Of a DNA stretch of 64,000 nucleotides, positions 2,483-62,757 are shown in pieces. The notes under the pieces were generated by a model. The model made no database searches. It was not told where the DNA came from and worked only from the letters and a program-made list of their open reading frames with translations. The stretch is taken from positions 38,631 to 102,630 of the IMG/VR virus record IMGVR_UViG_3300030329_005371. One strand, given 5' to 3'. A program made the position numbers and the translations under genes. This stretch comes from a virus. Each line of letters starts with the position of its first letter. Within the stretch, counting starts at the first letter, position 1.

Positions 2483-3769
2483 ATGACAAAAAAGAAAATA
2501 ATGGTCATCGCAGACCATCCACTATCGCCTTCCGGCGTTGGTACCCAGACAAGGTACTTTATTGAAGCTCTCTTAAACACTGATAGATATAAATTTATTT
2601 GTTTAGGAGGAGCATTACAGCATCAGGATTATAGACCGCAGAGAGTCGCTCCATTTGAAGATGATTGGGTAATATATCCAGTCGAAGGATATGGTAATGA
2701 CGAAATGATTCGCTCTATTCTTCGCAAAGAAAAGCCTGACGTGCTTTGGTTTATGACAGATCCCAGGTTCTATGGATGGCTGTGGGAAATTGAAAATGAA
2801 GTAAGAGTAAATGTCCCCATGATCTATTATCATGTGTGGGATAATTTTCCGGCTCCTTATTATAATGCTCCATTTTATAATTCTAATGATAAAGTTGTAG
2901 CTATTTCAAAAGTCACACACGAAATTGTTAAAACTGTCGCGCCTGATGTGGCGTGTGAATATCTACCACACGCAGTTGATCCTCAATATTTTAAGCCTGC
3001 GAAAGGTGGCGAAGCCGAAAGAAAAGTCGAAGCTGTAAAGAAAGCATTGCTAGAGAAAAATAGTGCGATTACTGCCAATCCCAAAAAGAAGATATTTTTC
3101 TGGAACAGCAGAAACGCTCGCAGAAAGCAAAGCGGTACGGTGATTTGGTGGTTTAAGGAATTTCTAGATGAAGTAGGGCACGATAAAGCATGCTTGTTAA
3201 TGCATACAGATGCTAGAGATCCTCACGGGCAAGACTTGCCCCATCTTATTGAGCACTTGGGAGTCAATGAAGGTCAGATATTTTTATCTACCAACAAGGT
3301 CCCTGCCGAAGATATGGCGGCTATGTACAACGCATGTGATTATACAATTAATATTTCAGATGCGGAAGGTTTTGGTCTCTCCGCATTAGAGTCATTAAGT
3401 TGTGGTGTGCCTGTTATAGTAACCATGACAGGAGGTCTTCAAGAGCAAGTAACAGATGGCAAAGACTGGTTTGGCTATGGAATCCAGCCCGCCTCTAGAT
3501 CAATTATAGGCTCCCTTCAGGTTCCATATATTTATGAAGATCGTATTTCTAAAGAAGATTTTATATCCACTCTCAAAAAGGCTCTTAATTTAAGTCCAAA
3601 GGCATACAAGAATTTGTCCAAAAAGGGACTTAAACATGTGGAGGAGAATTACAATTTTCAAACTTATAAAAAGAGATGGATAGAAATTATGGATAATTTA
3701 ATTGAAGAACATGGCTCTTGGAGCGAAAGAAAAAATTATACTCGCTGGCATTTAATGGAGGTAGCGTGA
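2483..3769 (+). CDS. GT-B glycosyltransferase, family 4-like
   Basis: DHPLSPSGVG N-terminus, PHAVD, RNARRKQ, EGFGLSALESLSCG (EX7E). Confidence 0.9.
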   Translation: MTKKKIMVIADHPLSPSGVGTQTRYFIEALLNTDRYKFICLGGALQHQDYRPQRVAPFEDDWVIYPVEGYGNDEMIRSILRKEKPDVLWFMTDPRFYGWLWEIENEVRVNVPMIYYHVWDNFPAPYYNAPFYNSNDKVVAISKVTHEIVKTVAPDVACEYLPHAVDPQYFKPAKGGEAERKVEAVKKALLEKNSAITANPKKKIFFWNSRNARRKQSGTVIWWFKEFLDEVGHDKACLLMHTDARDPHGQDLPHLIEHLGVNEGQIFLSTNKVPAEDMAAMYNACDYTINISDAEGFGLSALESLSCGVPVIVTMTGGLQEQVTDGKDWFGYGIQPASRSIIGSLQVPYIYEDRISKEDFISTLKKALNLSPKAYKNLSKKGLKHVEENYNFQTYKKRWIEIMDNLIEEHGSWSERKNYTRWHLMEVA

Positions 3770-5016
3770 AAAAGAAAATTTTATTAAAAGGACCCCTTCT
3801 GACGCGTTCGGGTTATGGAGAACAAGCGCGCTTTGCGCTTAGAGCGCTCAGAAGTAAGCCAGACTTATTTGATGTCTATATACAGCCATTAAGATGGGGC
3901 GCCACATCTTGGTTATTTGAAGATAACGAAGAACGCGAGTGGATCGATCAAGCAATAGAAAAGACTATCGGGTTTATTCAGCAGGGGGGCCAATTTGACA
4001 TCTCTCTCCAGGTTACCATTCCTAATGAATGGGAAAAATTGGCTCCTTACAATGTAGGATATACTGCTGGTTTGGAGGCCACGCGAGTTCCTCCGGTATG
4101 GATAGAAAAGCTTAATTCAATGGATAAGGTGATTACGATCTCTTCTTTTTCAAAAGATATCTTTGAATCATCCACCTACGAAGGCACTCACTCTGAAACA
4201 GGCCAGCAAGTACAGCTAGTCCCCAACACACCAATTTCAGTAGTAGGCTATCCTGTAAAGACGCATTCTGCGACACCTCCGTTGGATTTAGATCTAAAGT
4301 ATGATTTTAATTTTCTCAGTATTGCTCAATTTGCTGTAAGAAAAAACATTGAGCAAACTATAAAATGGTTTATGCAAGAATTCCGTGATGATGAGGTTGG
4401 CTTAGTATTAAAAACTAATCTAGCGAAAAACTGTTTGATGGATCGAGAAGCTACCTTAAACAAGCTTAAGCAGCTTGTCTCGTCTCTAAGTGACGGCGCC
4501 AAATGTAAACTTTATTTATTACACGGAGATATGACCGATGAAGAGATTCATTCACTTTATTGTCATCCTAAATTAAAGGCTCTGATTGCGTTGCCTCATG
4601 GAGAAGGATTCGGGCTTCCTATATTTGAAGCAGCATATTCTGGCATGCCGATTGTTGCCACTGGGTGGTCTGGCCAGCTAGATTATCTGGTAGACGAAAA
4701 TAAAAAAGAGCAATTTTACAATGTAAGTTATGATATCCAACCTATTCAAGAAAAAGCTGTCTGGGACGGTGTGCTCATGAAAGAAGCGATGTGGGCATAT
4801 GCCAAGGAGTCTTCCGCTAAAACACAGATGAGAAGATGTTACGAGGAAGTAATAGAAAATACTGGCTTAGCCGCAAAAAGTTGTGCGTATGCTGAACAAT
4901 TGAAAGAGCGCTTCAGTGAAGAAAAAATGTTTTCATTATTTACCGAAGCAGTACACCGGCAAGATCCTGAAATTGATGCGTGGTTAGCTAAACTTGAAGC
5001 AATTGAAGAGTTATGA
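3766..5016 (+). CDS. GT-B glycosyltransferase, family 4-like
   Basis: SGYGEQAR, RKNIE, HGEGFGLPIFEAAYSG (EX7E), TGWSGQLDY. Probable GTG start at 3766 overlapping the upstream TGA, with a GGAGG SD. Confidence 0.9.
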   Translation: MKKKILLKGPLLTRSGYGEQARFALRALRSKPDLFDVYIQPLRWGATSWLFEDNEEREWIDQAIEKTIGFIQQGGQFDISLQVTIPNEWEKLAPYNVGYTAGLEATRVPPVWIEKLNSMDKVITISSFSKDIFESSTYEGTHSETGQQVQLVPNTPISVVGYPVKTHSATPPLDLDLKYDFNFLSIAQFAVRKNIEQTIKWFMQEFRDDEVGLVLKTNLAKNCLMDREATLNKLKQLVSSLSDGAKCKLYLLHGDMTDEEIHSLYCHPKLKALIALPHGEGFGLPIFEAAYSGMPIVATGWSGQLDYLVDENKKEQFYNVSYDIQPIQEKAVWDGVLMKEAMWAYAKESSAKTQMRRCYEEVIENTGLAAKSCAYAEQLKERFSEEKMFSLFTEAVHRQDPEIDAWLAKLEAIEEL

Positions 5017-5708
5017 TAGATTTTTTGCCTTACGTAGAAGAATTTAAAAAAGCAATAACCAGCACATGGCTTACACCGCGCGGCATTATGTTTAGTGAGG
5101 GTTTTGCGTTAGTTAGCTTGATGAAGCATTTTGACATAGATCTGATGATTGAGTCGGGGGTGGCATATGGAGGATCAACCGAAATGATGGCCCTCGCGAC
5201 ACAGAAACCAATTGTTGGGATTGATACATTTACTTGTTATGATGATTCATATGTATATGCCAAGAATCGATTAGCTAAATATAAGAATGTGTTGTTAATA
5301 AAAGGCGACAGTTTTGATAAACTTCCTGGGATTTTAAATACTTTTACTGGCAACAAAATTGGAATTTTCATTGATGGGCCAAAAGGCGAGATGGCTATAG
5401 ATATGTCTCGCCAATTGTATGAGGGAGATCATAGAATTAAGTTTATATGTATCCACGATCTTTGCCATGGAACTCCAGAAGCTGAAAAATGCGCGCGGAT
5501 TTTTGATGATATAATTTTTACAGATGAGCCTGCTGGCTACTTTGCTGAAGCCCGAGAACAAATTGACTCGCATATGCTTAAGATAAATAAACAATTATGT
5601 GAGGAAAGCAAATCTTCTTTAAATCCGGCTCAGGGATTGGGATATTTACAGACTTCATTAAGAGAGTATCCTTATGGCTTTGGAATGGCAATTATAGTAA
5701 GAACATGA
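5013..5708 (+). CDS. Class I SAM-dependent methyltransferase (Methyltransf_24-like)
   Basis: IESGVAYGGST motif I, GID, GDS, FIDGPKG, IHD. Confidence 0.75.
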   Translation: MIDFLPYVEEFKKAITSTWLTPRGIMFSEGFALVSLMKHFDIDLMIESGVAYGGSTEMMALATQKPIVGIDTFTCYDDSYVYAKNRLAKYKNVLLIKGDSFDKLPGILNTFTGNKIGIFIDGPKGEMAIDMSRQLYEGDHRIKFICIHDLCHGTPEAEKCARIFDDIIFTDEPAGYFAEAREQIDSHMLKINKQLCEESKSSLNPAQGLGYLQTSLREYPYGFGMAIIVRT

Positions 5709-6559
5709 CTAAAAAAGTTATCTTTATTGCTGACGCGTTCGCTCATCAGCACACTGGTGGCGCCGAACTACATGATGCTGTTGTGATTGATTTTTTTCAG
5801 ACGAAGAATATTTTACATGATGTTAAAAACACTTCTCTTATTACTGTAGATTATATTAAGAAAAATACTGATAAAATATGGTTTATCTCAAATTTTGTTG
5901 CGCTAAAAAATGTGTGTAAAGCGTTATTGGCTAAAGAGTGTGAGTACTATATCTACGAACATGACTATAAATTTTCTAAAGTACGAAATCCTATAAACTT
6001 TCCAGATTTTTTGTGCCCCAAAAGCGATCTTATGAATCTTAATTTCTACGCTGCTGCAAAAAAAGTAATATGTTTAAGCAAGATGCACCGAGAAATTTTT
6101 GATAAAAACTTACACCTACCTAATATTGTCAATATTAATTGTAGTATGTGGTCGGATAGTCAGCTCGATCTGTTTAAGAGGCTTCAAAAGCCGCATAAGA
6201 ATGGAAAATTTGCCGTCATTAAAACCGGCAACCCCACCAAAAGAATGCCTCAAGCAATTGAATTTTGTAGGGCCCGGAACATTCCTTTTGATCTGATAGC
6301 ATCTCAAAACTATGAAGAATTTATTGACATATTGTCAAACTATAGAGGTCTTGCTTTTATGACTGGGCACCCCGAACCCACTCCTCGTGTAGCTATTGAG
6401 GCCAAAATGCTAAATTGTAAATTTATAGCGCCCAAACACTTGATTAGCGTGGCTCATGAGGATTATTTTCACTTACAAGGTCTTCATATGATAGAAGAAG
6501 TAAAGAAAATGCGAGATGTTGCATTAAATCGTTTTATGGGCTGGTTTGATGAGACATAA
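5705..6559 (+). CDS. Putative GT-B glycosyltransferase
   Basis: N-terminal GGAE, YEHDYK, EPTPRVAIEAKMLNC (EX7E-like). Confidence 0.65.
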   Translation: MTKKVIFIADAFAHQHTGGAELHDAVVIDFFQTKNILHDVKNTSLITVDYIKKNTDKIWFISNFVALKNVCKALLAKECEYYIYEHDYKFSKVRNPINFPDFLCPKSDLMNLNFYAAAKKVICLSKMHREIFDKNLHLPNIVNINCSMWSDSQLDLFKRLQKPHKNGKFAVIKTGNPTKRMPQAIEFCRARNIPFDLIASQNYEEFIDILSNYRGLAFMTGHPEPTPRVAIEAKMLNCKFIAPKHLISVAHEDYFHLQGLHMIEEVKKMRDVALNRFMGWFDET

Positions 6560-7253
6560 CATTCTAACTGTGGCTAATGAAGATTATCGTTCTTTTTTGA
6601 TATTATTTGTTAATTCTCTTTTTGAATTTGGCAATTTAAGCGAAACTGAAAAGATATATGTATTCGATACAGGCCTTAGTCAAGAAACCCGTGATTATCT
6701 TTTGTGTTTTCCTAAGATAGAAATTCGAAATGCTGGATTTACAGCTCAATCAGACGCTATACATGATTCTGGATGGAAGCGCAATACTTATTCTAAGACT
6801 AAATTTTTGAAAGATATATTAACAAATACTCAACTTCCTACATTTATGATTGATGCCGATTGTATTTTTATTCAAGATTTTTTAGACTTGATAGATGAAA
6901 AGTGTGATATAATAGGATGTGAGCGACAACGAGAAGGATTTTCTAAATATATTGGCTCTTTTTTTGGAGCCATTAATGTTGAGCAATCAATTAAGTTTAT
7001 AGATTTGTGGATAAAAAATATTCAAATATTACAAGACACCACGGCGCTTAAACATTGTGAAAGCCCTGCTTTGGCTAAAACTATCGAGGAATATGATTTT
7101 AAAGTTCAAGACTTAAAAGAGCAAATAGTATCGGCGGTATTTCCTTCACAAGAATCACGCATAATACATCTTAAGTCTGATCACTATGCGCTGACAGTAC
7201 AAGATCGACTAAATCTTCAACATGCGCAAGAATTTGTAAAAAGGTACTTATAA
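6549..7253 (+). CDS. GT-A nucleotide-diphospho-sugar transferase (GT77/GT8-like)
   Basis: MIDADCIF DxD motif, DTGLS, K-x-K before the DxD, IIHLKS. Confidence 0.7.
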   Translation: MRHNILTVANEDYRSFLILFVNSLFEFGNLSETEKIYVFDTGLSQETRDYLLCFPKIEIRNAGFTAQSDAIHDSGWKRNTYSKTKFLKDILTNTQLPTFMIDADCIFIQDFLDLIDEKCDIIGCERQREGFSKYIGSFFGAINVEQSIKFIDLWIKNIQILQDTTALKHCESPALAKTIEEYDFKVQDLKEQIVSAVFPSQESRIIHLKSDHYALTVQDRLNLQHAQEFVKRYL

Positions 7254-7960
7254 TGTTATTGTCAGTAGTAATCTCAACGTATAATAGATCAGATGTACTG
7301 AAACAAAATTTAGATCACTTTAAGAATCAGACTGATATGGAATTCGAAATAGTGGTAGGTATTGATGGTTCGACCGACGATACAATACAAATGTTGAATT
7401 CTTATCAGGGCCCATTTAGTTTACGCTGGATCAATACCGGTGAAACTGAAAAATACTGTTTAGCAAAAGTTCGCAACATGGCTATTGTTGAAACTGTAGG
7501 ACAAGCCGTTGTTATTTTGGATGATGATAGCTTTCCGACTCCTGAGTTTATAGCAGCGCACAAAAGCTCTGCGCAAAGAGGAGTTATTACAGGTGGATAT
7601 AGAAACTCTCACGATCCTAAAGACTCGCTACATCCAAAGATGAAACGTACGCTTTTAAAATATGGAATCAATAAACTAAACCCAATCACTGAAAGAATAG
7701 TAGAAAATAATGCCTGTATGATGCGGTCAGATTTGATTGGCTGCGGCATGTTTTCTGAAAGATTTGAAGGATACGGCGGCTGTGGTCAAGAGTTTATATG
7801 GAGATTGGCCTATCAAGGCTACCAATATAAATTTAATCCCGAAGCAATGATCTATCACCACCGCGAATTCGAGGGAGACAATGGTCTAACAAGAGAGATA
7901 AAAGATCAACAGGCCATGGAGATGTCTAAAATGATTTATAAACACTGCGGGAATTTTTAA
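7253..7960 (+). CDS. Glycosyltransferase family 2
   Basis: SVVISTYNR, IDGSTD, RN..I, LDDD, FSERFEGYG, YHH. Confidence 0.92.
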   Translation: MLLSVVISTYNRSDVLKQNLDHFKNQTDMEFEIVVGIDGSTDDTIQMLNSYQGPFSLRWINTGETEKYCLAKVRNMAIVETVGQAVVILDDDSFPTPEFIAAHKSSAQRGVITGGYRNSHDPKDSLHPKMKRTLLKYGINKLNPITERIVENNACMMRSDLIGCGMFSERFEGYGGCGQEFIWRLAYQGYQYKFNPEAMIYHHREFEGDNGLTREIKDQQAMEMSKMIYKHCGNF

Positions 7961-9051
7961 TGAACATTCCACTACTAGATTTAAAAAGACAATATCAAGC
8001 TATAAAAAAGGAGATTGTTCCCCTTGTGAATGAGATCATGGAATCTCAATGGTTTGTTAACGGCCCGCGCGTTAAAGAATTTGAAGAGAATTTTGCTAAT
8101 TTCTGCGGAGCATCTCATGCGGTTGGGTGCTCTTCGGGCACAGACGCGTTAATTATGGCACTAACAGCATTAGACATTGGCTGTGAGGACGAAGTAATCA
8201 CAGTGCCATTTACTTTTTTTGCCACTGTCGAAGCAATTATTAGACGAGGCGCCTCTCCTGTATTTGTTGATATTGAAGAAGAGACCTTTAATATTGATAC
8301 TTCACAAATTGAGGCGGCTATTACCCCTAATACTAAAGCTATTATTCCTGTTCACCTTTTTGGACAATGTTCAAATATGGAGGAGATTAGAAATATAGCA
8401 GCCAAGTATGATCTAAAAGTCATAGAAGATTCAGCACAAGCGGTAGGTGCGACATGGAAGTCCGACCGGGCTGGCTCAATGGGCACATTAGGGTGTTTTA
8501 GTTTTTTTCCTTCTAAGAATTTAGGCGCCTTCGGAGATGGAGGCATTGTTACTACTAATGATGAAGAGCTGTATGAGAAAATGTTGCGTACGCGTCAACA
8601 CGGCATTGATATGAAAAATCCTTATTATTATGAACACATTGGAGGAAACTTCAGACTTGATGCCTTACAAGCAGCTGTATTAAACGTAAAACTTAAGTAT
8701 ATTGAACAATGGCAAGCACAGCGCCATCAGAATGCGCTATATTATAACGAACGCCTGAAAGGGGTGATTACACCTCCGTCCTATGAATATGCTTATCATG
8801 TTTATAATCAGTATGTAATTCGTAGTTCTATGCGCGATAAATTAAAGCAAAAACTACATGATAATAATATTGGATGTTCCGTTTATTATCCTTATCCTAT
8901 ACACCTACAGCCTTGCGTGGAGATGCTTGGTTATAAAGCAGGTGATTTTCCTGTAACGGAGAAAGCTTGTTCTGAAGTATTGGCCCTTCCAATATTTCCC
9001 GAGCTAAGTCAAGCGGAATTAGATCGTGTTATCGAGGTGATAAACCAATGA
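7960..9051 (+). CDS. DegT/DnrJ/EryC1/StrS PLP-dependent sugar aminotransferase (WbpE-like)
   Basis: SSGTDAL, FTFFAT, PVHLFGQ, EDSAQA, SFFPSKNLGAFGDGG (PLP Lys), NFRLDALQAA. Confidence 0.95.
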   Translation: MNIPLLDLKRQYQAIKKEIVPLVNEIMESQWFVNGPRVKEFEENFANFCGASHAVGCSSGTDALIMALTALDIGCEDEVITVPFTFFATVEAIIRRGASPVFVDIEEETFNIDTSQIEAAITPNTKAIIPVHLFGQCSNMEEIRNIAAKYDLKVIEDSAQAVGATWKSDRAGSMGTLGCFSFFPSKNLGAFGDGGIVTTNDEELYEKMLRTRQHGIDMKNPYYYEHIGGNFRLDALQAAVLNVKLKYIEQWQAQRHQNALYYNERLKGVITPPSYEYAYHVYNQYVIRSSMRDKLKQKLHDNNIGCSVYYPYPIHLQPCVEMLGYKAGDFPVTEKACSEVLALPIFPELSQAELDRVIEVINQ

Positions 9052-9932
9052 GAGTGGTTCTGGTTGGGTGTGGTTCTATGGGACAAAAGCATCTTAATGT
9101 GCTGGACTCTATTGATAATTTAGAAGTAGTGGGAGTTATTGATCCTACTTTTGAAAGAGAAGGTATTAATTTCAGCTCCATAGAACAATTTTTAGAAACA
9201 GAAGTTCCAGTTGATTTTGCCATCGTGGCAACTCCAACCAGTTATCATCACAAAAGTGCCATATCTCTTATTCATAATGGCATTCATGTATTGATTGAGA
9301 AACCAATCGCCCCCACTCTTCAAGAGGCAGAAGAGATTAGATACGCAGCTACCAAGCACAATGTTAAAGTAGCAGTGGGTCATATTGAAAGATTTAATCC
9401 GGCAATTGTTGCTTTACGTAACGATTTAAAAGAGCAAAATGTTTTGACCTGTAATATTAAGCGTATCAGCCCCTATCCTGCTCGTATTCAAGATATAGGG
9501 GTAAAGTTAGATTTAGGCATTCATGATGTAGATTTGGTGAGATATATAACCGGCAAAGAGGTTAAGAATTATCATTGTACTTCTTCCAAGGTAACACATC
9601 CAGATCGAGAAGACACAGCTTTATTTTATTTTCATTTAGGAAATACGTCCGCTACGATTTTAAACAGCTGGATGTCTCCTTTTCGGGAGAGAAAAATAGA
9701 TGTCATGACAGAAGAACATTATTATAAAATTGATTTGATGACACAAAGCGTGGCAAAATATTCCATTATGGAATCGAACAGCTATGGGATTACGGATTTA
9801 TATATTCAGCGTACAAATGCTCTACAGGACCAAACTATCGCATTTATAAATTTTATTGAAACGAATGATGCGGGAGATTTAGCGCAATTAGAAGATGCGA
9901 TGATTGCTTTGGGATATGTTTTAGGAGATTAA
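9048..9932 (+). CDS. Gfo/Idh/MocA NAD-dependent oxidoreductase (WbpB-like sugar 3-dehydrogenase)
   Basis: GCGSMG, IVATPT..H, HVLIEKPIA, VGHIERFNPA, DLGIHDVD; coupled to the aminotransferase gene. Confidence 0.92.
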   Translation: MRVVLVGCGSMGQKHLNVLDSIDNLEVVGVIDPTFEREGINFSSIEQFLETEVPVDFAIVATPTSYHHKSAISLIHNGIHVLIEKPIAPTLQEAEEIRYAATKHNVKVAVGHIERFNPAIVALRNDLKEQNVLTCNIKRISPYPARIQDIGVKLDLGIHDVDLVRYITGKEVKNYHCTSSKVTHPDREDTALFYFHLGNTSATILNSWMSPFRERKIDVMTEEHYYKIDLMTQSVAKYSIMESNSYGITDLYIQRTNALQDQTIAFINFIETNDAGDLAQLEDAMIALGYVLGD

Positions 9933-9933
9933 G

Positions 9934-10824
9934 ATGAAAGCCTGTATAAGTTATATTTCTTCGCGTACACGGTGTATTGAGTATAGCCTTAAATCGTTAT
10001 GGGATAATTTCAATTGTGATTACAATTATCCGGTATATGTAAATTATTTTGATGATATTTATGATAATTTGGATTTACGCTCTCACATTACAAGACACAA
10101 TGAGCAAAATGTTATCTTTTGTCAAGTCCCCTATCAAACTCCCTCTTTTTTGAAAGAGGAAGAACTTTTTTATAATCGTAAAGATTTGTGGTATGCTCGT
10201 GAAAGATTTTCAATTGCTCGTAAAGGATATCTTCATATGTGTCATTACACAAGCAATATGTATGGATATCCTAATACTAATTTACATGAATATGATTATG
10301 TGATGACGCATGATGACGAGGCCGGATATACTAAGAAAATGCCCTATAATCCTTTTGAAGTTATGGAAAAACAACCTTACTGGATCGGAGCATATGCGGT
10401 TAATCAACGCCTTAAAAATGGCCACCCCCATCAGGGACACTTAGATACTCGAACTGGACTGTGGGAGTTCACTCGTAATTTTCTTAAGGAAAACGAAATA
10501 GTTCCCGAATCTCCCGTTCTACAAGCGCTGCTAAAAGAAACGAAAGCAGAGAACCTATATCATTATATTAAATGGTGCGATACGTATGTTATTAAAACTG
10601 AAATATTCAGATCGGAATTGTGGAATAAGTGGATCACTGCGATTAATAATAATGGTGGCATATACAAATATCGATGGGGAGATAATGAGATTGTAACATT
10701 ATTTGCTTATATGAGCCAAGATAAAATATTTGATTTAAAAACAGTCCCAGAAGGCTACCATGATCAAGGAATGTTTAGAAATATTCAAGACTACGCACCT
10801 GGAGTTAAAGATGTCGCAAAATAA
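9934..10824 (+). CDS. GT15 (KRE2/MNT1-like) alpha-1,2-mannosyltransferase homolog
   Basis: FN...NYPV, GYLHMCHY (cf. fungal SYRHMCRF), YDYVMTHDD, YNPFEVM, GGIYKYRWGD (cf. GGFFYERWGD). Confidence 0.8.
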   Translation: MKACISYISSRTRCIEYSLKSLWDNFNCDYNYPVYVNYFDDIYDNLDLRSHITRHNEQNVIFCQVPYQTPSFLKEEELFYNRKDLWYARERFSIARKGYLHMCHYTSNMYGYPNTNLHEYDYVMTHDDEAGYTKKMPYNPFEVMEKQPYWIGAYAVNQRLKNGHPHQGHLDTRTGLWEFTRNFLKENEIVPESPVLQALLKETKAENLYHYIKWCDTYVIKTEIFRSELWNKWITAINNNGGIYKYRWGDNEIVTLFAYMSQDKIFDLKTVPEGYHDQGMFRNIQDYAPGVKDVAK

Positions 10825-11626
10825 TATTGAGAAAAAACTAAAGCGCGAATTAGAAGACATGCAGAATTTGTGGCTTAATGGATCTAATCCGTCTTTGTGG
10901 GGATGGGAAAAAGCCTTGGAGAATTTCAACAAGAGTCCATATCCCATAGACATAGATTATATCGAACGAAGATGTATTTTACCATGTATGACTCCCGCGT
11001 CCACTGTTTTAGATATCGGCACTAACGGAGGATTTTGGCTTGGCAGGATGAAAAACGCTAAAAGACTTATTGGAATAGATGCGCTCCCTGCGGCACATCT
11101 TGGATTTTGGAGCCGCATGACTAGAGATCTATCGCCAGAAGAATTAAAAAAGGTAGAATTCCATCAAATATCAGACTTTAAGTGTTCGTTCTTGGAGGAC
11201 AATAGTATAGATTACGTATTTTCATATGATGTATTTTGTCATATCTCATATTCCGGCGCCAAAGCTTATATAGAAAATTTAGCACCAAAACTTAAAAAAG
11301 GGGCAAATTGCTTTATTATGATTGCAGATTATGATAAATATATCTACAAAGATCGAGCACTTTTTATAGGTGACGCCGAAGATTCCAATAAATTTATTAA
11401 CTTAAATGGATTAAATAAGCTAGCTAAAGGCGCCGGATTCGATAGTGTAGATGAATTTGTCGCCGATTATGATGGCATTAAGAAACAATCTCCAGGTCGG
11501 TGGTATTTTTACAATACCGATCGGTTTGTAGAACTGATTGAGAATAATGACTATGAATTGATAAATCGCGATGTGGCAGTAATCGCCGATCCATTAAATC
11601 CCATAATTCACTTTAGGAAGCTATAA
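10811..11626 (+). CDS. Class I SAM-dependent methyltransferase
   Basis: VLDIGTNGG, GID, DNSIDYVFSYDVFCH, LKKGA. Likely ATG start at 10811 after GGAG. Confidence 0.85.
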   Translation: MSQNNIEKKLKRELEDMQNLWLNGSNPSLWGWEKALENFNKSPYPIDIDYIERRCILPCMTPASTVLDIGTNGGFWLGRMKNAKRLIGIDALPAAHLGFWSRMTRDLSPEELKKVEFHQISDFKCSFLEDNSIDYVFSYDVFCHISYSGAKAYIENLAPKLKKGANCFIMIADYDKYIYKDRALFIGDAEDSNKFINLNGLNKLAKGAGFDSVDEFVADYDGIKKQSPGRWYFYNTDRFVELIENNDYELINRDVAVIADPLNPIIHFRKL

Positions 11627-12288
11627 TGAAATCATCACTAAAAGATAGTATTTTGAGAAAATTTATTACCCCTGACTCTAATGGGAATACATTAATGACG
11701 CCGATTGTTATTTCTCGCGAAAAGAAAGTGCTTTATTTTCATATCGCCAAAACAGGAGGATCCTCTATCGCTCAGCTTCTCCGAAATAACAAAATGGATG
11801 ATATGGTGTTAGGAAACAAACGAGGCATTCATGAAGAAAAAGTTGCTTACTTTGAGGAAGTCCTGGAGGAGTGGGAGGAATATTATAAATTTACATTTGT
11901 GCGAAACAAGTTTGATCTTTTAATCTCGCTCTACAATTATGACAGACAGTTGAATGGAAAATATAGTCTTCCTAATCATGTAACTTTTGAAGAGTTTATC
12001 ACCAACCATGTTGGAGTCCAAGATCCTATTTATACACACTGGATTGACCAATATTATTTGACATACGCTGATGGCGAGTGTATGTATGATTTTGTTGGAA
12101 GATTCGAGAATTATAATGAAGATTTAAATACAGTCTGTAAACATCTCGGAATTGAAAATACCCAGATTCGCACAAATATAGGCAACTATGATCGCAGCAA
12201 AAAACAAGAATACTACACTGAAGATCTAAAACAAATTGTAAAGGATAGATTTTCTGACGAAATAGAGTGTTTTAATTGGTGGTATTAA
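11626..12288 (+). CDS. Sulfotransferase family 2 (carbohydrate sulfotransferase-like)
   Basis: 5'-PSB FHIAKTGGSSI, 3'-PB FTFVRN...LISLY, H..Q, DFVGRFE. Confidence 0.85.
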   Translation: MKSSLKDSILRKFITPDSNGNTLMTPIVISREKKVLYFHIAKTGGSSIAQLLRNNKMDDMVLGNKRGIHEEKVAYFEEVLEEWEEYYKFTFVRNKFDLLISLYNYDRQLNGKYSLPNHVTFEEFITNHVGVQDPIYTHWIDQYYLTYADGECMYDFVGRFENYNEDLNTVCKHLGIENTQIRTNIGNYDRSKKQEYYTEDLKQIVKDRFSDEIECFNWWY

Positions 12289-13107
12289 ATGGGAAAATTT
12301 AAGACTTGGAAAGAATTTGATGAATCGCGAGAGCTTGGATCTCCTACGATACACATTAAACCACGCGACTACGCATTGAGACTGATGCGATATCAGATGT
12401 CCTGCAACCGCCCTAAAAGACCTGACCGGCCTGGAAGACCTCCTAGAAGTGTTGAAAGATTTGCTGCCCATGGTGAGGATGGTATACTAGAAGAGATATT
12501 TTTAAATCGCTTGAACATTCAAAAAGGAATAGCATGCGAATTCGGTGCTTGGGACGGTATAGCATATAGTAATACTTTTAATCTTGTAAAAAATTATGGT
12601 TGGAAATGCCACATGATCGAGGCCGATCCGCAAAAAGCAAAAGAACTGCGAAAAACCGCATCAAGACCAGGATTAGATATTATTCCATATGAATATCTTA
12701 TTGATTATAAATCAAGATTTATTGGAGATGATAAAACAAATCCATGTGAATCTGTTGCCAAACAAACTATCACCTTAGAATCATTTTTAGACGAAATTAA
12801 CATGCCTCACGATTTTGATCTTTTAAGTATTGATGTTGATGGGCCTGATTATCAAATATGGCAGTCTTTAGAAAATTATCATCCTAAAATTGTAATAATC
12901 GAAGCAAATAATAATGATTTAGATATAATCTACAAAGAAGGCGCAGATCATAGAATACATATGGAGGGGAGCACATCTTTTGGCCCTATGAAAAAACTTG
13001 GAGAGGCAAAAGGATATACTCTTTTGGTCTATACGGGGAATTTGATTTTTGCTAGAAATGATATTTATGAAATTTTAAAGCAATTTAAATCTGTGAGCTT
13101 GGATTGA
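12289..13107 (+). CDS. FkbM-like methyltransferase
   Basis: GEDGIL, EFGAWDG..SNT, IEAD, DLLSIDVDGPDY, GN.IF. Confidence 0.85.
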   Translation: MGKFKTWKEFDESRELGSPTIHIKPRDYALRLMRYQMSCNRPKRPDRPGRPPRSVERFAAHGEDGILEEIFLNRLNIQKGIACEFGAWDGIAYSNTFNLVKNYGWKCHMIEADPQKAKELRKTASRPGLDIIPYEYLIDYKSRFIGDDKTNPCESVAKQTITLESFLDEINMPHDFDLLSIDVDGPDYQIWQSLENYHPKIVIIEANNNDLDIIYKEGADHRIHMEGSTSFGPMKKLGEAKGYTLLVYTGNLIFARNDIYEILKQFKSVSLD

Positions 13108-13113
13108 GATAAC

Positions 13114-13917
13114 ATGGAACAAAAGAAGATTAAAATTTTTAGTCCTGGCGCCTGTGGAACTAGATTTTTAACTGGTATTTTTTCGTATACCCATGGACAA
13201 GAGAGCCCAACAATTCAGGAAGAAATTCTAGAAGATATTTGTAATAAATTTAAATTTCGTTCCGCGGGCCCCACACACTCTCCTTACCACAAGATAGAAA
13301 GTAAAGATCTGAACACCTTACGAAAAATAATTTTTCTTTATGGAGATCCTCGAAATACTTTTTTATCCATTTGTAATAAACACGTTGATAGGAGGCATCG
13401 TCATTTGCTACATTTAGGCTATTTGGGCGATCGAAGCGAACTGGCAACATCTTTGAAGGACTTAGATACTATGCATCGAACGCACATTCCCACAAGATCG
13501 ATTCAATCATCGCGCGAAGCCATGACATTTCAGCGCATATCCCTTGGAGCCCCTAGGGTTACGGTCACTACCGGTTGTCCGGACTATCTGGAGGCTGTAG
13601 CTATTATCATCGAGCAAATTAAATCTTTTTCTGGCCTAGAAGATCACTTCAATTCGTGGCTTCATGCCGATTGTCCAATTCCTATAGCATTTGTAAAATA
13701 TGAATATTTGTTGGAAGTTTTTGATCAGCTTCTAGACTTTGTTGAAATTTATGAATCGCGAAGTTTAATAAAGGCGTATGCTAATGCTGAGTGGAAACCA
13801 AGAAGATCAAAACACGAAGAACACACACATTCGGATAAATTAAATAAATTGTTCGACTCTCTTTTGTCGATACAATCACAATTACCTCCATTTTGGATTA
13901 AGGAGCCAACAAAATGA
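13114..13917 (+). CDS. Putative sulfotransferase-fold protein
   Basis: N-terminal P-loop-like SPGACGTRFL, THSP, IFLYGDPRN...S, W, VKYE. Confidence 0.5.
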   Translation: MEQKKIKIFSPGACGTRFLTGIFSYTHGQESPTIQEEILEDICNKFKFRSAGPTHSPYHKIESKDLNTLRKIIFLYGDPRNTFLSICNKHVDRRHRHLLHLGYLGDRSELATSLKDLDTMHRTHIPTRSIQSSREAMTFQRISLGAPRVTVTTGCPDYLEAVAIIIEQIKSFSGLEDHFNSWLHADCPIPIAFVKYEYLLEVFDQLLDFVEIYESRSLIKAYANAEWKPRRSKHEEHTHSDKLNKLFDSLLSIQSQLPPFWIKEPTK

Positions 13918-14891
13918 AGATATTATTTATAGATCCAGCCGTCCATAGCGCGAAGTCAGCGACATACCACCATTATAATTATCTTTACGATCGATTAAAG
14001 ATGAGGCATTATCACGAAGTTTTTCTTTATAATAAAACTTCCTTTAATAACATTGGAGATGTTTTAATGGAGTGTCATCTAAACAATTTTAAGCCCGATA
14101 TTATTTTCTTTGGAATGGGATGGTTCGCACTAAAGCCTCCACACTTTTCAAAAAATCTACATTTAGACAAAGTAGATATACCAGCCGTAGGATTTTTATT
14201 TAAGCCCCAGAACTTTTTAGAAGAAAAAATAAAATTTTTAAAGAATAATAATTTTGATTTGATTATAAGCTCTGTTCCTCAATGCGATGAATACCAAGAA
14301 AAATCCGGAATTGAGTGTAAATTATTGTCCCAAGCCGGCGATCCGAGGACCTTTTATGATCGTAAAATTGACAAAATTTATGATATTGGCTTTAGCGGAG
14401 CATTACACGACAACCATATCTATGTAGACGGCGCTTTCAAGACCTTCAACATACGCTCACGCGCTCAAGATTTGTTGCGCGAACAAGAAGGCATCTCTGC
14501 TTTTTTAAATGGTAGCGACGATGTAGCGGCCCGCATACCAAGTTATGAGGAGTATGCCAAAAAGATAAGCCAATGTAAGATGTGGATAGCAACCCCCGCG
14601 CCCTTCGAGGAAATTACAGGTAGATATTATGAAATTGGAATGGCTAAGACGCTACTTTTTTGTAGTGAAGTGCCAGAAATTTACAAAGATGTGTTGCGTG
14701 ATGGTGAAAATTGTGTTATATTCTCTAATGATTTAAGTGATTTCTTAGATAAATTTTATTATTATCGAGATAACTGGGAAATTACGCAGCAAATTATTGA
14801 GAATTCCTATAAAGAATTTCACTCAGCCCACACTTGGGAACAGCGTGTAGAATTTTTATTAAGTTATTTTAAAGAGGTACTGGAAAAATAG
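13914..14891 (+). CDS. GT-B glycosyltransferase (Glyco_trans_1_2/CgeB-like)
   Basis: YDIGFSG, R.R, EEYAKKI, RYYE, HTWEQR. Confidence 0.8.
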   Translation: MKILFIDPAVHSAKSATYHHYNYLYDRLKMRHYHEVFLYNKTSFNNIGDVLMECHLNNFKPDIIFFGMGWFALKPPHFSKNLHLDKVDIPAVGFLFKPQNFLEEKIKFLKNNNFDLIISSVPQCDEYQEKSGIECKLLSQAGDPRTFYDRKIDKIYDIGFSGALHDNHIYVDGAFKTFNIRSRAQDLLREQEGISAFLNGSDDVAARIPSYEEYAKKISQCKMWIATPAPFEEITGRYYEIGMAKTLLFCSEVPEIYKDVLRDGENCVIFSNDLSDFLDKFYYYRDNWEITQQIIENSYKEFHSAHTWEQRVEFLLSYFKEVLEK

Positions 14892-14892
14892 A

Positions 14893-16026
14893 ATGGAAAA
14901 AATAAGTGTTATAGGCATCGGAAAATTAGGATTATGTTTTGGTTTAAGCTTAGAAGCAGCCGGCTATCATGTAGTGGGGGTAGACATCAATGAGTCTTAT
15001 GTAGAAGCCATCAACAATAAAACATTTAATAGCTCTGAGCCAATGGTAGAAGAAATGCTAAAAAATAGCAAGCACTTTGAGGCCACCACTAACCTTAAAA
15101 AAGCAATACTCCACTCAGATATAATTTTTGTGATTGTAGCCACTCCTTCTTTATCAAATGGGCGTTATGACCATAAGCAAATAGAAGATCTTTGTGACAA
15201 CCTCATGGCCATGGGCCCTCAAGCCGCACCTAAGCATCTTATTATTAATTGTACTACGATGCCTCAATATTGCGAAAAGCTTCAAGAGCGAGTAGGGTTA
15301 AATAACTGGACTGTTTCTTATAATCCAGAGTTTATAGCCCAAGGAACAATTATAGCCAATCAAGAAAATCCAGATATGGTATTAATTGGAGAATCCAATG
15401 TGGACGTCGGAGATCGATTACAGAAGATATATGAGACGATGACACTAAACACTCCAAAAATTCACAGAATGACTCCCACCGAGGCTGAAATTACAAAAAT
15501 TGCTCTTAATTGTTTTTTAACAACGAAAATTTCTTATACTAATATGATCGGAGATATTGTATCGGCTTCGGGAGGAAGGCCTCAAGTTGTCCTTAATGCT
15601 GTGGGCGCAGACAGCCGCGTTGGCTCTAAGCTCACTCGTTATGGTTTTGGATATGGGGGGCCATGTTTCCCCCGAGATAATCGAGCCATTGGCATCTATG
15701 CTCAAGATATAGGCCTCCCAGCCGATATTAGTGCGGCCACCGACGAAATCAATATTAAACATTTGAGGTTTCAAATCAATGACTTTATAAGAAAGAATGA
15801 TAAACATACCAAGATCTCTTTTGGGGATTGTCCGGAACCAGACCGAGTAATATATGAGAACGTAACATATAAAAAAGGCTCTACCATGATTGAAGAGTCT
15901 CAACAATTAGCTTTTGCGGTGGCGCTAGCAGAGTGTGGATATGAAGTAAGGATTTATGATTGTCGAGAGGTAATAGAGAGCGTACGCGCCTTACATGGTG
16001 AGTTATTTGAATATGTGGAAATATAA
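14893..16026 (+). CDS. UDP-glucose/GDP-mannose 6-dehydrogenase family
   Basis: IGIGKLG, VATPS, YNPEFIAQG, AEITKIALN, catalytic GYGGPCFPRD, TYK. Confidence 0.93.
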   Translation: MEKISVIGIGKLGLCFGLSLEAAGYHVVGVDINESYVEAINNKTFNSSEPMVEEMLKNSKHFEATTNLKKAILHSDIIFVIVATPSLSNGRYDHKQIEDLCDNLMAMGPQAAPKHLIINCTTMPQYCEKLQERVGLNNWTVSYNPEFIAQGTIIANQENPDMVLIGESNVDVGDRLQKIYETMTLNTPKIHRMTPTEAEITKIALNCFLTTKISYTNMIGDIVSASGGRPQVVLNAVGADSRVGSKLTRYGFGYGGPCFPRDNRAIGIYAQDIGLPADISAATDEINIKHLRFQINDFIRKNDKHTKISFGDCPEPDRVIYENVTYKKGSTMIEESQQLAFAVALAECGYEVRIYDCREVIESVRALHGELFEYVEI

Positions 16027-19149: not shown

Positions 19150-19150
19150 T

Positions 19151-19870: not shown

Positions 19871-19871
19871 G

Positions 19872-22355: not shown

Positions 22356-22363
22356 GGAATAAA

Positions 22364-23233: not shown

Positions 23234-23242
23234 GGAGGAAAA

Positions 23243-24091: not shown

Positions 24092-24309
24092 AACAATATA
24101 AAACACACAAATTGTCTACACAGGCACTAGGAGCCGTTATGATGGCTTTACAAGAATCGCTATTAAATGAATTAGACATCGTACCGATTCTTAAAAACTT
24201 TGATCTCGTTGAAACGGATGATGGGCTTGTCGTCAAAAATCCGCCCACTGTAAGATTTAGTGACAACAGTACGATTAGCGAACAAGATTTAAAGAATATG
24301 GCAGAATAG
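24088..24309 (+). CDS. Hypothetical protein
   Basis: 73 aa, ATGA overlap with the upstream gene, GAGGA SD. Confidence 0.7.
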   Translation: MKQYKTHKLSTQALGAVMMALQESLLNELDIVPILKNFDLVETDDGLVVKNPPTVRFSDNSTISEQDLKNMAE

Positions 24310-24563
24310 TGCCTCGGTATCGTTACCATTGTGAAGCGTGCGAAAAAGAGATTGTGATTTTTCACCGCATTAACGATATCGTTACAAAGTGCCCCCAGTG
24401 TGAGTCAGAGACTATCGAAAAGATGCTCTCTGTTCCGGTAGTTATAAATAAAGATCGCAATCAAAGTTCTCAAGTTGGCAAACTCACTCATGAATATATT
24501 AAAGCCAATAAAGAAATTCTAAAAAATCAAAAGAAGGAAGCAGAAAAACAGAATTATGAGTAG
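24309..24563 (+). CDS. FmdB-like zinc-ribbon protein
   Basis: MPRYRYHCEAC...CPQC pattern. Confidence 0.8.
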   Translation: MPRYRYHCEACEKEIVIFHRINDIVTKCPQCESETIEKMLSVPVVINKDRNQSSQVGKLTHEYIKANKEILKNQKKEAEKQNYE

Positions 24564-27629: not shown

Positions 27630-27643
27630 GAATAATATTATAG

Positions 27644-61528: not shown

Positions 61529-61530
61529 AA

Positions 61531-62757
61531 ATGTCTTTGAAGAAGTTTGATGAAAACGATGTTTTCATTAATACCATGAAGGCATATCCTCATAATGAGT
61601 TTGTCGTCTTTAATTCAAAGATATATTGGAATAGTGTTCCGGCTCAATCCGGCGCCCGAAACAATCAGGTGCGAAATGTTCCGTCCGGATATGTGAGTCT
61701 CTATGAATACAATATTGATCGCCCTAAGTTATCGACCGGCCGCTCTATTGAAACTGGAAGTATTTTAGACACTGGGCGGATTTATCCATGGATTTCTAAG
61801 GATACCGCCGGCGGAAGCTTTAAGACTGTCTCTACTGAGACCTATCAAAACGAATTTCAGTGGGGCGATGTGCTGACTGGCTCCTACCCCCTGTCTGCTT
61901 CTATAACGCGAGAATACATAACGCGCCCGTATTATTCTACGGCATCTTATAATAAGCACTATATGTCGCTTAGAAATAGATTAAATTTTTACGGACTTAA
62001 GAGTCAGCACTATAATGTTACATCTGCTTTTGGAAACAAAGATCGTTCAAAGATTAACCTAGTTTCAATCCCTAGCATTTTTTATGGGTCTCAGATCAAG
62101 CCTGGGAGCGTTTCCCTTAAGTGGTATTTTACAGGCTCCCTTATTGGCGAACTTAGAGATACACGCCAGAATGGTGAATTGATTCAGGTAGGCCCTCGAT
62201 CAAGCCTAGGGAGCGGTTCTGTAGCGGGCGTTGTTCTTTATAACGAAGGGTTTGTTCTCTTAACTGGCTCTTGGGCGCTCAATACTGAAACAATTCGACT
62301 CACCACGGCTTCGTTTTCCATCGCACCGCAATGGTTACATTACGGCGCCGGCGCAAATGACGGAATTTCTACCAGTACCGCCGGCGCCACGTATGCTAGT
62401 GCTTCATTTTCTCTTTCCTTTAAGGGTACCACAGAAACACAAGTGGTTACCATGCTGGCTAAAGCAAAGCGCGGAGAAGTAAATTATTCAAATAATCCCA
62501 CATTTCTAAAATACGGACAAACAAGAACTTACGCCTCTTCGTCACAGATATTTGAAGAACCTACAGACGTGGAAATTAAAAATTGTGTGAGTTCTTCGTT
62601 TAATGATTATGAGGTGCCTTTTAAAAGACAAGTGTATATCTCGCGCGTTGGTATTTATGATGAGAATAAAAATTTGATAGGCATGGCTACTCTAGCAAAT
62701 CCTGTTTTGAAAGAATCGGGCCGAGATCTAGCATTTAAAATAAAAGTAGATATCTAG
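61531..62757 (+). CDS. Baseplate/tail-collar-like structural protein (paralog of 60389)
   Basis: IKPGS, G.V.Y..G...LT, NYSNNPT...YISRVGIYDE..NLIGMATLANPVLK....FKIKVDI. Confidence 0.65.
   Translation: MSLKKFDENDVFINTMKAYPHNEFVVFNSKIYWNSVPAQSGARNNQVRNVPSGYVSLYEYNIDRPKLSTGRSIETGSILDTGRIYPWISKDTAGGSFKTVSTETYQNEFQWGDVLTGSYPLSASITREYITRPYYSTASYNKHYMSLRNRLNFYGLKSQHYNVTSAFGNKDRSKINLVSIPSIFYGSQIKPGSVSLKWYFTGSLIGELRDTRQNGELIQVGPRSSLGSGSVAGVVLYNEGFVLLTGSWALNTETIRLTTASFSIAPQWLHYGAGANDGISTSTAGATYASASFSLSFKGTTETQVVTMLAKAKRGEVNYSNNPTFLKYGQTRTYASSSQIFEEPTDVEIKNCVSSSFNDYEVPFKRQVYISRVGIYDENKNLIGMATLANPVLKESGRDLAFKIKVDI

Follow-up and report, generated by a model that had tools for sequence, protein, structure and literature searches.

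A constant glycosyltransferase pair in a hypervariable phage glycan island co-occurs with an order-specific serine motif in distal fiber proteins

The last 64 kb of the 102.6-kb viral contig IMGVR_UViG_3300030329_005371 (the window, to which all positions below refer) contain an island of 25 consecutive plus-strand open reading frames (ORFs) for glycan synthesis and modification at positions 2483 to 24091 and, further downstream, a module of baseplate and fiber genes. All of the sizeable ORFs of the window lie on the plus strand, and the G+C content is 0.35 to 0.45 throughout. Two features of this locus are new. The first is a pair of family 4 glycosyltransferases (GT4) that anchors an otherwise variable island and is spread over distant phages, three of them cultured. 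The second is a conserved, order-specific serine motif, [S/T]-[G/A]-S, that is carried by the distal fiber proteins and linked to the GT4 pair.

The ORFs of the island are tightly packed, with gaps of −65 to +9 nucleotides (nt), and were assigned to families by using Pfam and NCBIfam profiles, together with Atlas cluster neighbors for the protein encoded at 5705. The first two genes encode paralogous glycosyltransferases (GTs), GT4 no. 1 (2483 to 3769; PF00534, E = 1.5e-15) and GT4 no. 2 (3718 to 5016; PF00534, E = 8e-8). They are followed by a genome-specific gene (5013 to 5708) that has neither a Pfam or NCBIfam match nor a homolog in the five large relatives described below, and then by a probable GT1/GT4-like transferase (5705 to 6559). 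The latter also lacks a Pfam or NCBIfam match, but in the Atlas it neighbors viral clusters, and 65% of the members of one such cluster have Glycos_transf_1; in most relatives a homolog of this third, semiconserved gene, 24 to 38% identical, comes after the GT4 pair. Another gene without a family match (6546 to 7253) has a single homolog, 28% identical, in contig L027. Next come a GT2 glycosyltransferase (7253 to 7960; PF00535, E = 4.6e-19), a DegT-family sugar aminotransferase (7960 to 9051; PF01041, E = 8e-126), and an oxidoreductase resembling UDP-GlcNAc 3-dehydrogenase (9048 to 9932; NF040723, E = 2e-57, below the cutoff of that model). The aminotransferase and oxidoreductase (7960 to 9932) would together form a 3-amino-sugar module. 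The protein encoded at 9934 to 10824 resembles the Kre2/Mnt1-type alpha-1,2-mannosyltransferases of family GT15 (PF01793, E = 2.7e-15). This family is essentially eukaryotic, and in fungi it extends protein O-linked mannose; homologs of the phage protein were present in two of the relatives (G001, 49% identity; G003, 33%).

The block from 10760 to 13917 encodes, by Pfam, an S-adenosylmethionine (SAM) methyltransferase (starting at 10760), a Sulfotransfer_2 protein (11626), an FkbM methyltransferase (12289), and a weakly matching Sulfotransfer_1-like protein (13114). The next block (13914 to 16026) contains a Glyco_trans_1_2 glycosyltransferase (13914; PF13524, E = 3e-11) and a nucleoside diphosphate (NDP)-sugar 6-dehydrogenase (14893; TIGR03026, 219.9 bits, above the cutoff). 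Two more FkbM methyltransferases (16027 and 16725), a second Sulfotransfer_2 protein (17597), a weak GT11-like match (18301), and a second SAM methyltransferase (19124) were assigned by Pfam in the block from 16027 to 19870. A gene for the NAD+ synthase NadE follows (19872 to 20654; PF02540, E = 4e-46; TIGR00552, above the cutoff). The last block (20651 to 24091; Pfam and NCBIfam) encodes an epimerase/dehydratase of the short-chain dehydrogenase/reductase (SDR) type (20651), a weakly matching methyltransferase (21600), an SDR protein resembling UDP-sugar 4-epimerases (22334), and a short NDP-sugar dehydrogenase of 282 amino acids (aa) (23243 to 24091). Relative to the profile, this dehydrogenase is missing some 70 positions at its N terminus, and it has no C-terminal UDP-binding domain; because it is 72 to 73% identical in G001 and G003, the short form is conserved rather than recently truncated.

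An initial annotation of this DNA, made from the sequence alone, had counted eight glycosyltransferases and seven methyltransferases in the island. Profile searches place these numbers slightly lower, at about seven GT-like proteins (the GT4 pair, GT2, GT15, Glyco_trans_1_2, the weak GT11 match, and the 5705 protein) and six methyltransferases (three FkbM type, two SAM type, and one weak match), whereas the three sulfotransferase-like proteins (two Sulfotransfer_2 and one weak Sulfotransfer_1), the six nucleotide-sugar enzymes, and NadE were all recovered. This enzyme set predicts a glycan with uronic acids, 3-amino sugars, O-methyl groups, and sulfate esters. An adenosine 5′-phosphosulfate (APS) kinase, which would allow the phage to make its own 3′-phosphoadenosine 5′-phosphosulfate (PAPS), is absent. 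Our literature searches found nothing relevant on phage sulfotransferases or on the glycosyltransferase of Rhodothermus phage RM378, which is discussed below.

Forty IMG/VR contigs share the gene order PhoH, two small genes, nuclease, GT4, GT4, and usually a homolog of the 5705 gene, and downstream of that shared left part the gene content differs in all 40. We compared five large relatives (155 to 203 kb; CheckV rates four of them as 100% complete), starting at the nuclease gene. Each has an island at the same site, 17 to 24 kb in length, as does contig L022, in which it spans about 8 kb, and only a minority of island genes have homologs between genomes. The island is a hypervariable slot of 8 to 24 kb in every relative. 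GT4 no. 1 is 56 to 71% identical in all 40 relatives, GT4 no. 2 is 48 to 63% identical in relatives, and across the six large genomes compared the pair is 48 to 82% identical. The two genes are core genes and form an anchor older than this marine lineage.

The pair extends well beyond the marine lineage. Searches using tblastn detected full-length orthologs of GT4 no. 1, at 27 to 34% identity, in Flavobacterium phage immuto, Microcystis phage Mel-JY01, RM378, and the huge phage LR756508, and orthologs of GT4 no. 2 in immuto and Mel-JY01; in RM378, p014 is a homolog of GT4 no. 2 by blastp. The gene order in immuto is PD-(D/E)XK nuclease, small gene, GT, GT, GT2, aminotransferases, and methyltransferase, and further on there are a mannosyltransferase, an acetyltransferase-like "pilin glycosylation protein," an epimerase, and another GT. 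In Mel-JY01, GuaB separates the nuclease from the two adjacent GTs, which are followed by a GT-A protein, a methyltransferase, and another GT. RM378 has the GT4 pair without an island, amid replication genes, and encodes a UDP-galactopyranose mutase elsewhere in its genome. The 484-kb phage LR756508 (L084; LR756508.1, 293000 to 325000) has an ortholog of GT4 no. 1 and none of GT4 no. 2; this ortholog, two tandem Sulfotransfer_2 genes, and SDR epimerases all lie within 16 kb, and sulfotransferase-bearing glycan loci therefore extend to huge phages. The presence of the pair in phages of Bacteroidota, Cyanobacteria, and Rhodothermus and of an unknown marine host argues for an acceptor that belongs to the phage itself, and with hosts in at least three phyla a host-specific lipopolysaccharide acceptor is unlikely.

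Both paralogs are predicted to be retaining glycosyltransferases, and they have the E-x7-E signature of the C-terminal domain of GT4 enzymes. The signature is invariant in GT4 no. 1 (EGFGLxxLE) and takes the form GEGFGxPxxE in the GT4 no. 2 proteins of the marine lineage, immuto, and Mel-JY01, while RM378 p014 has His at the second Glu. An AlphaFold2 (AF2) model of GT4 no. 1, with a predicted local distance difference test (pLDDT) score of 85.6, has a canonical GT-B fold with two Rossmann-like domains and aligns over its full length to the GT4 structures 3oy2, 3c4q, and 3oka (E = 1e-17 to 1e-20). The best fold match in the PDB was B736L of chlorovirus NY-2A (3oy2; E = 1.7e-20), followed by MshA, sucrose-phosphate synthase, PimB′, and BshA; by sequence, a chlorovirus GT4 was the second-best PDB match.

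The structural genes include those of gp25-like and gp6-like baseplate wedge proteins (35224 to 37397, plus strand; phrog_261 and phrog_6) and of distal proteins of baseplate and fiber type (37397 to 62757, plus strand), with giant proteins of 2,168 aa and, at 39354, 3,536 aa. The placement of the island upstream of a baseplate module, as given in the initial annotation, is supported by the two wedge proteins; the sigma factor that was placed between the island and this module is only a lead from the Atlas, in which a viral sigma factor is the nearest named cluster to the 238-aa protein encoded at 24854. The structural module contains 104 occurrences of [ST][GAS]S, compared with 43.6 ± 6.0 in local shuffles that preserve composition within 30-residue blocks, and the five relatives are similar. 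The order of the residues matters: SGS occurs 23 times versus 8 for GSS and 6 for SSG, and TGS occurs 18 times versus 5 to 10 for its permutations. We did not retain the shuffle z-score as the sole statistic. It reached 5.3 in phage HTVC008M without any order specificity, and we therefore adopted a permutation-order index, the ratio of [ST][GA]S occurrences to the average number of occurrences of its four permuted forms. By this measure the bias in the contig is confined to the proteins encoded at 37397 to 62757, the proposed acceptors (68 motifs versus 19 to 27 per permuted form; index, 2.86; P = 2e-10), and one fiber-like upstream ORF. Motifs exceed expectation in the proteins encoded at 37397 (655 aa; 10 versus 2.5), 39354 (33 versus 8.4), 51043 (5 versus 1.9), 60389 (6 versus 1.3), and 61531 (408 aa; 9 versus 1.3). 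The set encoded at 24309 to 37397, which includes the gp25-like, gp6-like, and 2,168-aa proteins, has an index of 0.32, and the island enzymes have an index of 0.38; the gp6-like protein contains 1 motif versus 1.3 expected. The tripeptide enrichment noted in the initial annotation is thus order specific and beyond chance but does not extend to the gp25-like, gp6-like, and 2,168-aa proteins. The density of N-x-[ST] is modestly higher in structural proteins (0.76 versus 0.47 per 100 aa).

The motif bias co-occurs with the GT4 pair. The index was 2.13 to 2.58 in the six marine genomes, 4.31 in immuto, 2.77 in Mel-JY01, and 2.33 in RM378 (P ≤ 6e-6 for all of these), so that all nine pair-bearing genomes are biased, and it was 2.62 (P = 1e-3) in LR756508, which has GT4 no. 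1 only. The five genomes without the pair are at background, with no significant index: T4 (0.56), LR756511 (0.65), S-WAM1 (1.06), HTVC008M (1.18), and S-CBS4 (1.35). When motif enrichment is compared with glycan genes across related phages, as the initial annotation had recommended, the bias therefore tracks the GT4 pair. Two siphoviruses with a distant single GT4, S-CBS4 and TJE1, were tried as independent positives; neither showed a motif bias, and they provide no independent support. In S-CBS4 (L082, 9916 to 12282), genes for a GT4, a galactosyltransferase, and an SAM methyltransferase lie between the portal gene and the head protease and major head genes, a layout that resembles the virion glycosylation cassettes of mycobacteriophages.

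Individual motif sites are also conserved. Among the six genomes, sites were conserved in 51 of 110 comparisons (46%), versus 0 to 18% for permuted tripeptides, and among 40 homologs of the 408-aa protein the figures were 53% versus at most 15% for controls. In that protein, TGS201 was present in 37 of 39 homologs and TGS245 in 38 of 39, and SAS122 and SAS290 were each present in 28 of 39. Beyond the tripeptide, the flanks have no extended consensus; hydrophobic residues at −2, −1, and +1, Tyr at −2, and Ala at +1 are no more than modestly favored. The motif-rich segments of the marine proteins mostly have no detectable homology to proteins of immuto, Mel-JY01, and RM378, and in most cases only terminal domains of about 100 aa match between these phages. 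Since the bias is kept in segments without detectable homology, the enrichment has been maintained or re-created in each lineage rather than simply inherited. In the 408-aa protein as modeled by AF2 (core pLDDT mostly 70 to 90), the motifs fall where strands meet loops and in a hairpin turn of two residues, positions that, if the model is correct, an enzyme could reach; a fold search with this model returned no match at E ≤ 0.001.

As the best explanation, we tentatively propose, with a confidence that stops a little short of an even chance, that the island is a phage-owned cytoplasmic O-glycosylation system for virion fiber proteins that acts on [S/T]-[G/A]-S and combines a conserved base with a strain-specific outer glycan. 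A host-type early promoter would drive one long operon. The two retaining GT4 enzymes, probably with the GT1-like 5705 protein, would lay down a constant sugar base on the serine of exposed [S/T]-[G/A]-S turns in the distal baseplate and fiber proteins. The remaining genes would make UDP-uronic and 3-amino sugars, the GT2, GT15, GT1-like, and GT11-like enzymes would extend the glycan, and O-methyl and sulfate groups derived from host SAM and PAPS would cap it. The genes for the outer glycan would be swapped rapidly between strains, and close relatives would wear different glycans on a conserved site.

A possible analogy to this scheme is provided by GtfA and GtfB, an adjacent pair of paralogous, cytoplasmic GT4-type O-GlcNAc transferase proteins that modify Ser in the S-[A/V/T]-S-like repeats of serine-rich repeat adhesins; GtfB is noncatalytic, and in their loci variable accessory GTs follow and extend the glycan. 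The phage locus is similar in having two adjacent GT4 paralogs followed by variable GTs. Unlike GtfB, both phage paralogs keep E-x7-E, and the phage motif is scattered over folded, beta-rich proteins, whereas the substrate of GtfA/GtfB consists of long disordered repeats. We considered a GtfA/GtfB identity for the pair and rejected it, as GtfA was not among the PDB sequence or fold matches and both paralogs look catalytic.

A number of points weigh against virion proteins as the acceptor, which we infer from sequence and comparison. The top PDB matches of GT4 no. 1, by sequence or by fold, include no known protein O-GT such as GtfA; the acceptor of its best match, chlorovirus B736L, is itself unknown (PMC9614988), and its other structural neighbors act on small molecules or lipids. 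The pair-bearing phages share a distant ancestry (gp6-like proteins about 30% identical), and the co-occurrence of pair and motif is therefore not fully independent phylogenetically. The model of the 408-aa protein has a low overall confidence (pLDDT, 59.6), and the invariant Gly in the tight turns at TGS201 and TGS245 would also fit a motif that is purely structural. To this the early promoter and the published interpretation of similar islands can be added, as described below for the host envelope.

One of the two main alternatives, to which we assign only a small chance, is that the two observations are unrelated. The motif would then be a structural turn of the fiber architecture of this clade, and the island glycan would be meant for another acceptor, whether a lipid, a soluble metabolite, or a phage or host protein outside the virion. 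Some of the best-kept sites have an invariant Gly where a two-residue hairpin or the end of a strand lies, the motif-positive phages all belong to one deep clade that shares the gp6-like protein and terminal fiber domains, and the PDB relatives of the GT4 enzymes mostly glycosylate small molecules or lipids. However, the motif-rich segments mostly have no detectable homology between four lineages and yet share the same order-specific bias, and other beta-rich fibers (T4, S-WAM1, HTVC008M, and S-CBS4) lack it. A hypervariable glycan requiring 20 genes is also hard to square with an intracellular small-molecule product.

The initial annotation had reasoned from the solubility of the island proteins, and from the absence of export and priming machinery, that the glycan is made in the cytoplasm and placed on virion proteins. 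The observations themselves hold up well. Using a Kyte-Doolittle 19-residue mean (KD19) with a threshold of 1.6, no membrane segment was found in any of the 25 island proteins, including the seven or so phage-encoded GT-like proteins, and of about 125 island proteins in the five relatives all were below 1.6 except for five marginal cases at 1.68 to 1.84, none of them a strong segment. Pfam searches for polyprenyl-phosphate priming transferases of the WbaP/WecA type (PF02397 and PF00953) had no match in G000 to G004, a set that takes in the four complete relatives, while the same profiles matched in 9 to 12 of 14 reference genomes used as positive controls. The absence of a flippase, Wzy polymerase, or exporter is supported by hydropathy, in that no polytopic candidate was found in six islands (maximum, 1.84); this was a hydropathy test only and not a search with Wzx/Wzy profiles. 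The reasoning from these observations is weaker. In O-antigen and capsule loci, too, the GTs are soluble or peripheral and lack transmembrane segments. Because such soluble GTs exist and a host flippase could be used, solubility alone does not point to a cytoplasmic protein acceptor, and because a phage could borrow host membrane machinery, the absence of its own priming and polytopic proteins is not decisive. What speaks for virion proteins is instead the GT4 core pair, the conserved motif that tracks it, and the evidence against DNA, with attachment to the virion standing as a proposal.

It is possible, although we consider it unlikely, that the island instead remodels the host envelope, which is the other main alternative. 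Its soluble enzymes would work at the inner face of the inner membrane on undecaprenyl-linked O-antigen or capsule intermediates of the host, relying on the host priming transferase, flippase, and polymerase, and would alter the cell surface so as, for example, to block superinfection or the loss of progeny to debris; the variability of host O-antigens would account for that of the island. The combination of nucleotide-sugar synthesis genes with serial GTs and modifying enzymes is one that O-antigen and capsule loci typically have, and the peripheral GTs of such loci likewise have no transmembrane segments. Expression may also fit. A sigma-70-type promoter, TTGACA-N17-TATAAT (1660 to 1688, plus strand), matches the consensus at 12 of 12 positions just upstream of the nuclease gene; 24 of 32 relatives have TTGACA-N16-18-TAnnnT at the corresponding position despite diverged spacers, and the T4 late-promoter word TATAAATA is not enriched (11 found versus 8.7 expected). 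This promoter is likely the start of a nuclease-GT4-GT4-island operon that, judged by its promoter, would be of early rather than late type. Early expression would fit a virion-directed function and suit an early, host-directed remodeling function equally well. Envelope remodeling is moreover the published reading of the islands of pelagimyophages (PMC7029224) and cyanomyophages (PMC12801897). However, the GT4 pair spans phages of Flavobacterium, Microcystis, and Rhodothermus and marine phages, the host envelopes of which share no common acceptor, and a GT4-linked serine motif in fibers would be left unexplained. HTVC008M, which has the published type of GT-rich island without the pair, shows no motif bias (1.18), and a flippase, polymerase, ligase, or priming enzyme was found in none of the six islands.

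DNA, which the initial annotation wanted excluded as the acceptor, is disfavored. If the GT4 pair glycosylated a modified base and the island elaborated a DNA-linked glycan, the position of the pair near a PD-(D/E)XK nuclease in three lineages and near replication genes in RM378 and Mel-JY01 would make sense, and phage GT-B enzymes can place di- and trisaccharides on 5-hydroxymethylcytosine (5hmC) or 5-hydroxycytosine (5hoC) (bioRxiv 10.1101/2023.12.21.572611; PMC13326640). Nevertheless, we regard such hypermodification as very improbable. Genes of the ThyA family (PF00303) and for C5-methyltransferases (PF00145) were not found in the four complete relatives, with positive controls in place, and Tet/JBP (PF12851) was likewise not found in them, although for this family no control genome matched either. 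We know of no methylated, sulfated multisugar glycan on DNA. Analysis of immuto_2-6A virion DNA by liquid chromatography with UV detection and tandem mass spectrometry (LC-UV-MS/MS) showed canonical deoxyadenosine, deoxycytidine, and thymidine (dA, dC, and dT), with fdPreQ1 in place of deoxyguanosine (dG), and no glycosyl-nucleoside (bioRxiv 10.1101/2023.04.13.536721), a result that applies to immuto rather than to the marine lineage.

Misassembly of host chromosomal DNA onto the phage contig had been named as a way in which the whole interpretation could fail. The similarity of the gene content to bacterial polysaccharide loci is in keeping with such an artifact, but the comparative evidence excludes it to the point that it is hardly credible. 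The left junction is syntenic in 40 viral contigs, and both flanks are present in all five large relatives. Strand, gene packing, and G+C content (0.35 to 0.43) are like those of the flanks. Logan contigs from other marine metagenome runs (X2, X3, and X6) tile positions 10000 to 29900 with 0 differences and bridge the junction of the island with its right flank (22502 to 25056 in X3, 23227 to 25034 in X6, and a single 42-kb contig in X2). Many contigs in runs X2, X3, X6, and X8 are 95 to 100% identical to part of the island and then run into unlike sequence (12 to 63% of records), and a few weak joints in metagenome contigs skip 3 to 13 kb of the island. The partial matches followed by divergence suggest that a single sample can contain more than one island variant of this phage.

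On the left, the flank includes the PhoH gene (2 to 691; Pfam) and the PD-(D/E)XK nuclease gene (1711 to 2475, plus strand; PF12705, E = 1e-17). The right flank (24088 to 25860, plus strand) comprises genes for proteins of 73, 84, 116, 238, and 103 aa with 38 to 78% identity; every one of these genes is present in at least most of the five large relatives. The first of these fills an apparent 217-nt gap (24088 to 24309); the 73-aa plus-strand ORF is 68 to 78% identical in four of the five relatives and is a real small gene that was missed at an ORF cutoff of 80 aa. The 116-aa protein (24556 to 24906), kept in three of five relatives, has one N-terminal hydrophobic segment (KD19, 2.42) and is the only clear membrane protein near the island. 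Directly after the right flank, a 589-aa protein (25860 to 27629) has no homolog in most of the five relatives, which have proteins of 369 to 471 aa, mostly unrelated to one another, in its place. On sequence comparison, this position is a second variable slot, between the block with the sigma-like gene and the baseplate genes; a search for related loci with the 589-aa protein found none because the protein occupies a variable slot.

A megablast search of the island and structural module against 50,697 phage records gave no match, and the nearest cultured relatives of the gp6-like protein, at 28 to 31% identity, are those of Mel-JY01 and immuto, with LR756508 in the same range. PHROGs searches with 20 downstream proteins matched only the gp25-like and gp6-like proteins and, downstream of the structural genes, a RuvC-like resolvase and a primase; few proteins of the upstream part of the contig had matches. 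The lineage is abundant, as the fiber-type protein encoded at 61531 to 62757 has more than 4,284 homologs (E ≤ 1e-5) in ocean metagenomes, including Tara.

Two side observations concern the virion and the metabolism of this clade. The gene for the gp23-like capsid protein lies outside this contig; in G001 to G004 (L068 to L071), these proteins are nearly identical at both ends and contain a hypervariable internal insertion of about 200 to 270 residues, rich in G, S, T, and A and different in each genome. The [ST][GA]S tripeptide is mildly enriched in the insertion in three of the four genomes (4 versus 1.4, 4 versus 1.5, 6 versus 1.8, and 1 versus 1.5), and the capsid surface also seems to be diversifying. 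Genes for NAD+ synthesis recur in the clade. Besides NadE in the island, immuto has a short "NAD synthetase" ORF after the tail spike genes and, nearby, a gene for an NadR-type NMN adenylyltransferase (41793 to 42230 and 48088 to 49001 of L073 for the two NAD genes), and cyanophage S-SCSM2R likewise carries NAD+ synthesis genes (PMC12801897). Such genes may counter NAD+-depleting defenses or feed the sugar dehydrogenases.

A large glycan gene cluster is not in itself new in a phage. The initial annotation considered a pathway of this size unusual for a tailed phage; this was overstated, since cyanomyoviruses carry at least 22 such genes (PMC12801897) and pelagimyophages carry GT-rich islands (PMC7029224). 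The hypervariable, GT-rich regions beside the tail fibers of these marine phages have been read, without a test, as serving host O-chain modification (PMC7029224, PMC12801897). Like the island described here, the regions in P-SSM2, S-SCSM1, S-SCSM2R, and HTVC008M-type phages contain many GTs, NDP-sugar epimerases, UDP-glucose dehydrogenase, and NAD+ genes, often by the fibers (PMC12801897, PMC7029224). They differ in belonging to other lineages (Kyanoviridae), in having no ortholog of the GT4 pair at E ≤ 1e-5, and in having fibers without an order-specific serine motif (S-WAM1, 1.06; HTVC008M, 1.18).

To our knowledge, virion glycosylation in tailed phages has so far been documented only for the small cassettes of mycobacteriophages. 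In Che8, Corndog, and Myrna, cassettes of two to four genes glycosylate the C termini of capsid and tail tube proteins (Freeman et al. 2023, PMC10527164, as cited in PMC12619734). These phages resemble ours in having their own soluble GTs and a methyltransferase, which in their case modify virion proteins in the cytoplasm. The island described here is unlike them in having 25 genes, a hypervariable outer part, and predicted sulfotransferases, and in that the acceptor in mycobacteriophages is a C-terminal extension, whereas we propose a dispersed internal tripeptide on distal baseplate and fiber proteins. The major capsid proteins of the four relatives lack a Ser/Thr-rich C-terminal extension of the mycobacteriophage type and end in short ESG(A/G/S)-type tails. 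Among eukaryotic viruses, the Megavirinae have clade-specific glycogene clusters of 6 to 33 genes, with GTs, methyltransferases, and sulfate metabolism enzymes, that serve the capsid fibrils, and chloroviruses glycosylate their capsid protein (Vp54 in PBCV-1) by using their own cytoplasmic GTs (PMC9614988). The phage island is like these systems in its size, its bacterial-type amino-sugar pathway, its many GTs, its methyltransferases and sulfate-related enzymes, and a content that differs between clades, and unlike them in that those are giant viruses of eukaryotes with unrelated virions, whereas this phage has a bacterial host. Chlorovirus glycans are in addition N linked at noncanonical sequons, and the link proposed here is to the oxygen of Ser.

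It would be a further step, and one that we consider doubtful, to conclude that virions are proteoglycan-like throughout an abundant, ocean-wide T4-type clade and in its cultured relatives on Flavobacterium, Microcystis, and Rhodothermus, with rapidly exchanged cassettes that build strain-specific glycans, methylated, sulfated, and containing uronic acids and amino sugars, on the base laid down by the GT4 pair. The proposal is falsifiable, as it names an enzyme pair, a tripeptide, particular sites, and three cultured phages, and if it is false the conserved, GT4-linked serine motif will still need an explanation. If it is true, phages would have their own "serotype," with an evolution resembling that of a bacterial O-antigen locus. 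By default, host O-antigen modification has so far been the function assigned to glycan clusters in marine myoviruses, and the GT-rich hypervariable islands by the fiber genes of other marine myoviruses may then need to be reread as virion directed. Strain-specific sulfated and methylated fiber glycans would bear on adsorption, host range, particle stickiness, and resistance to proteases and grazers, as well as on the interpretation of the "hypervariable islands" of marine viromes.

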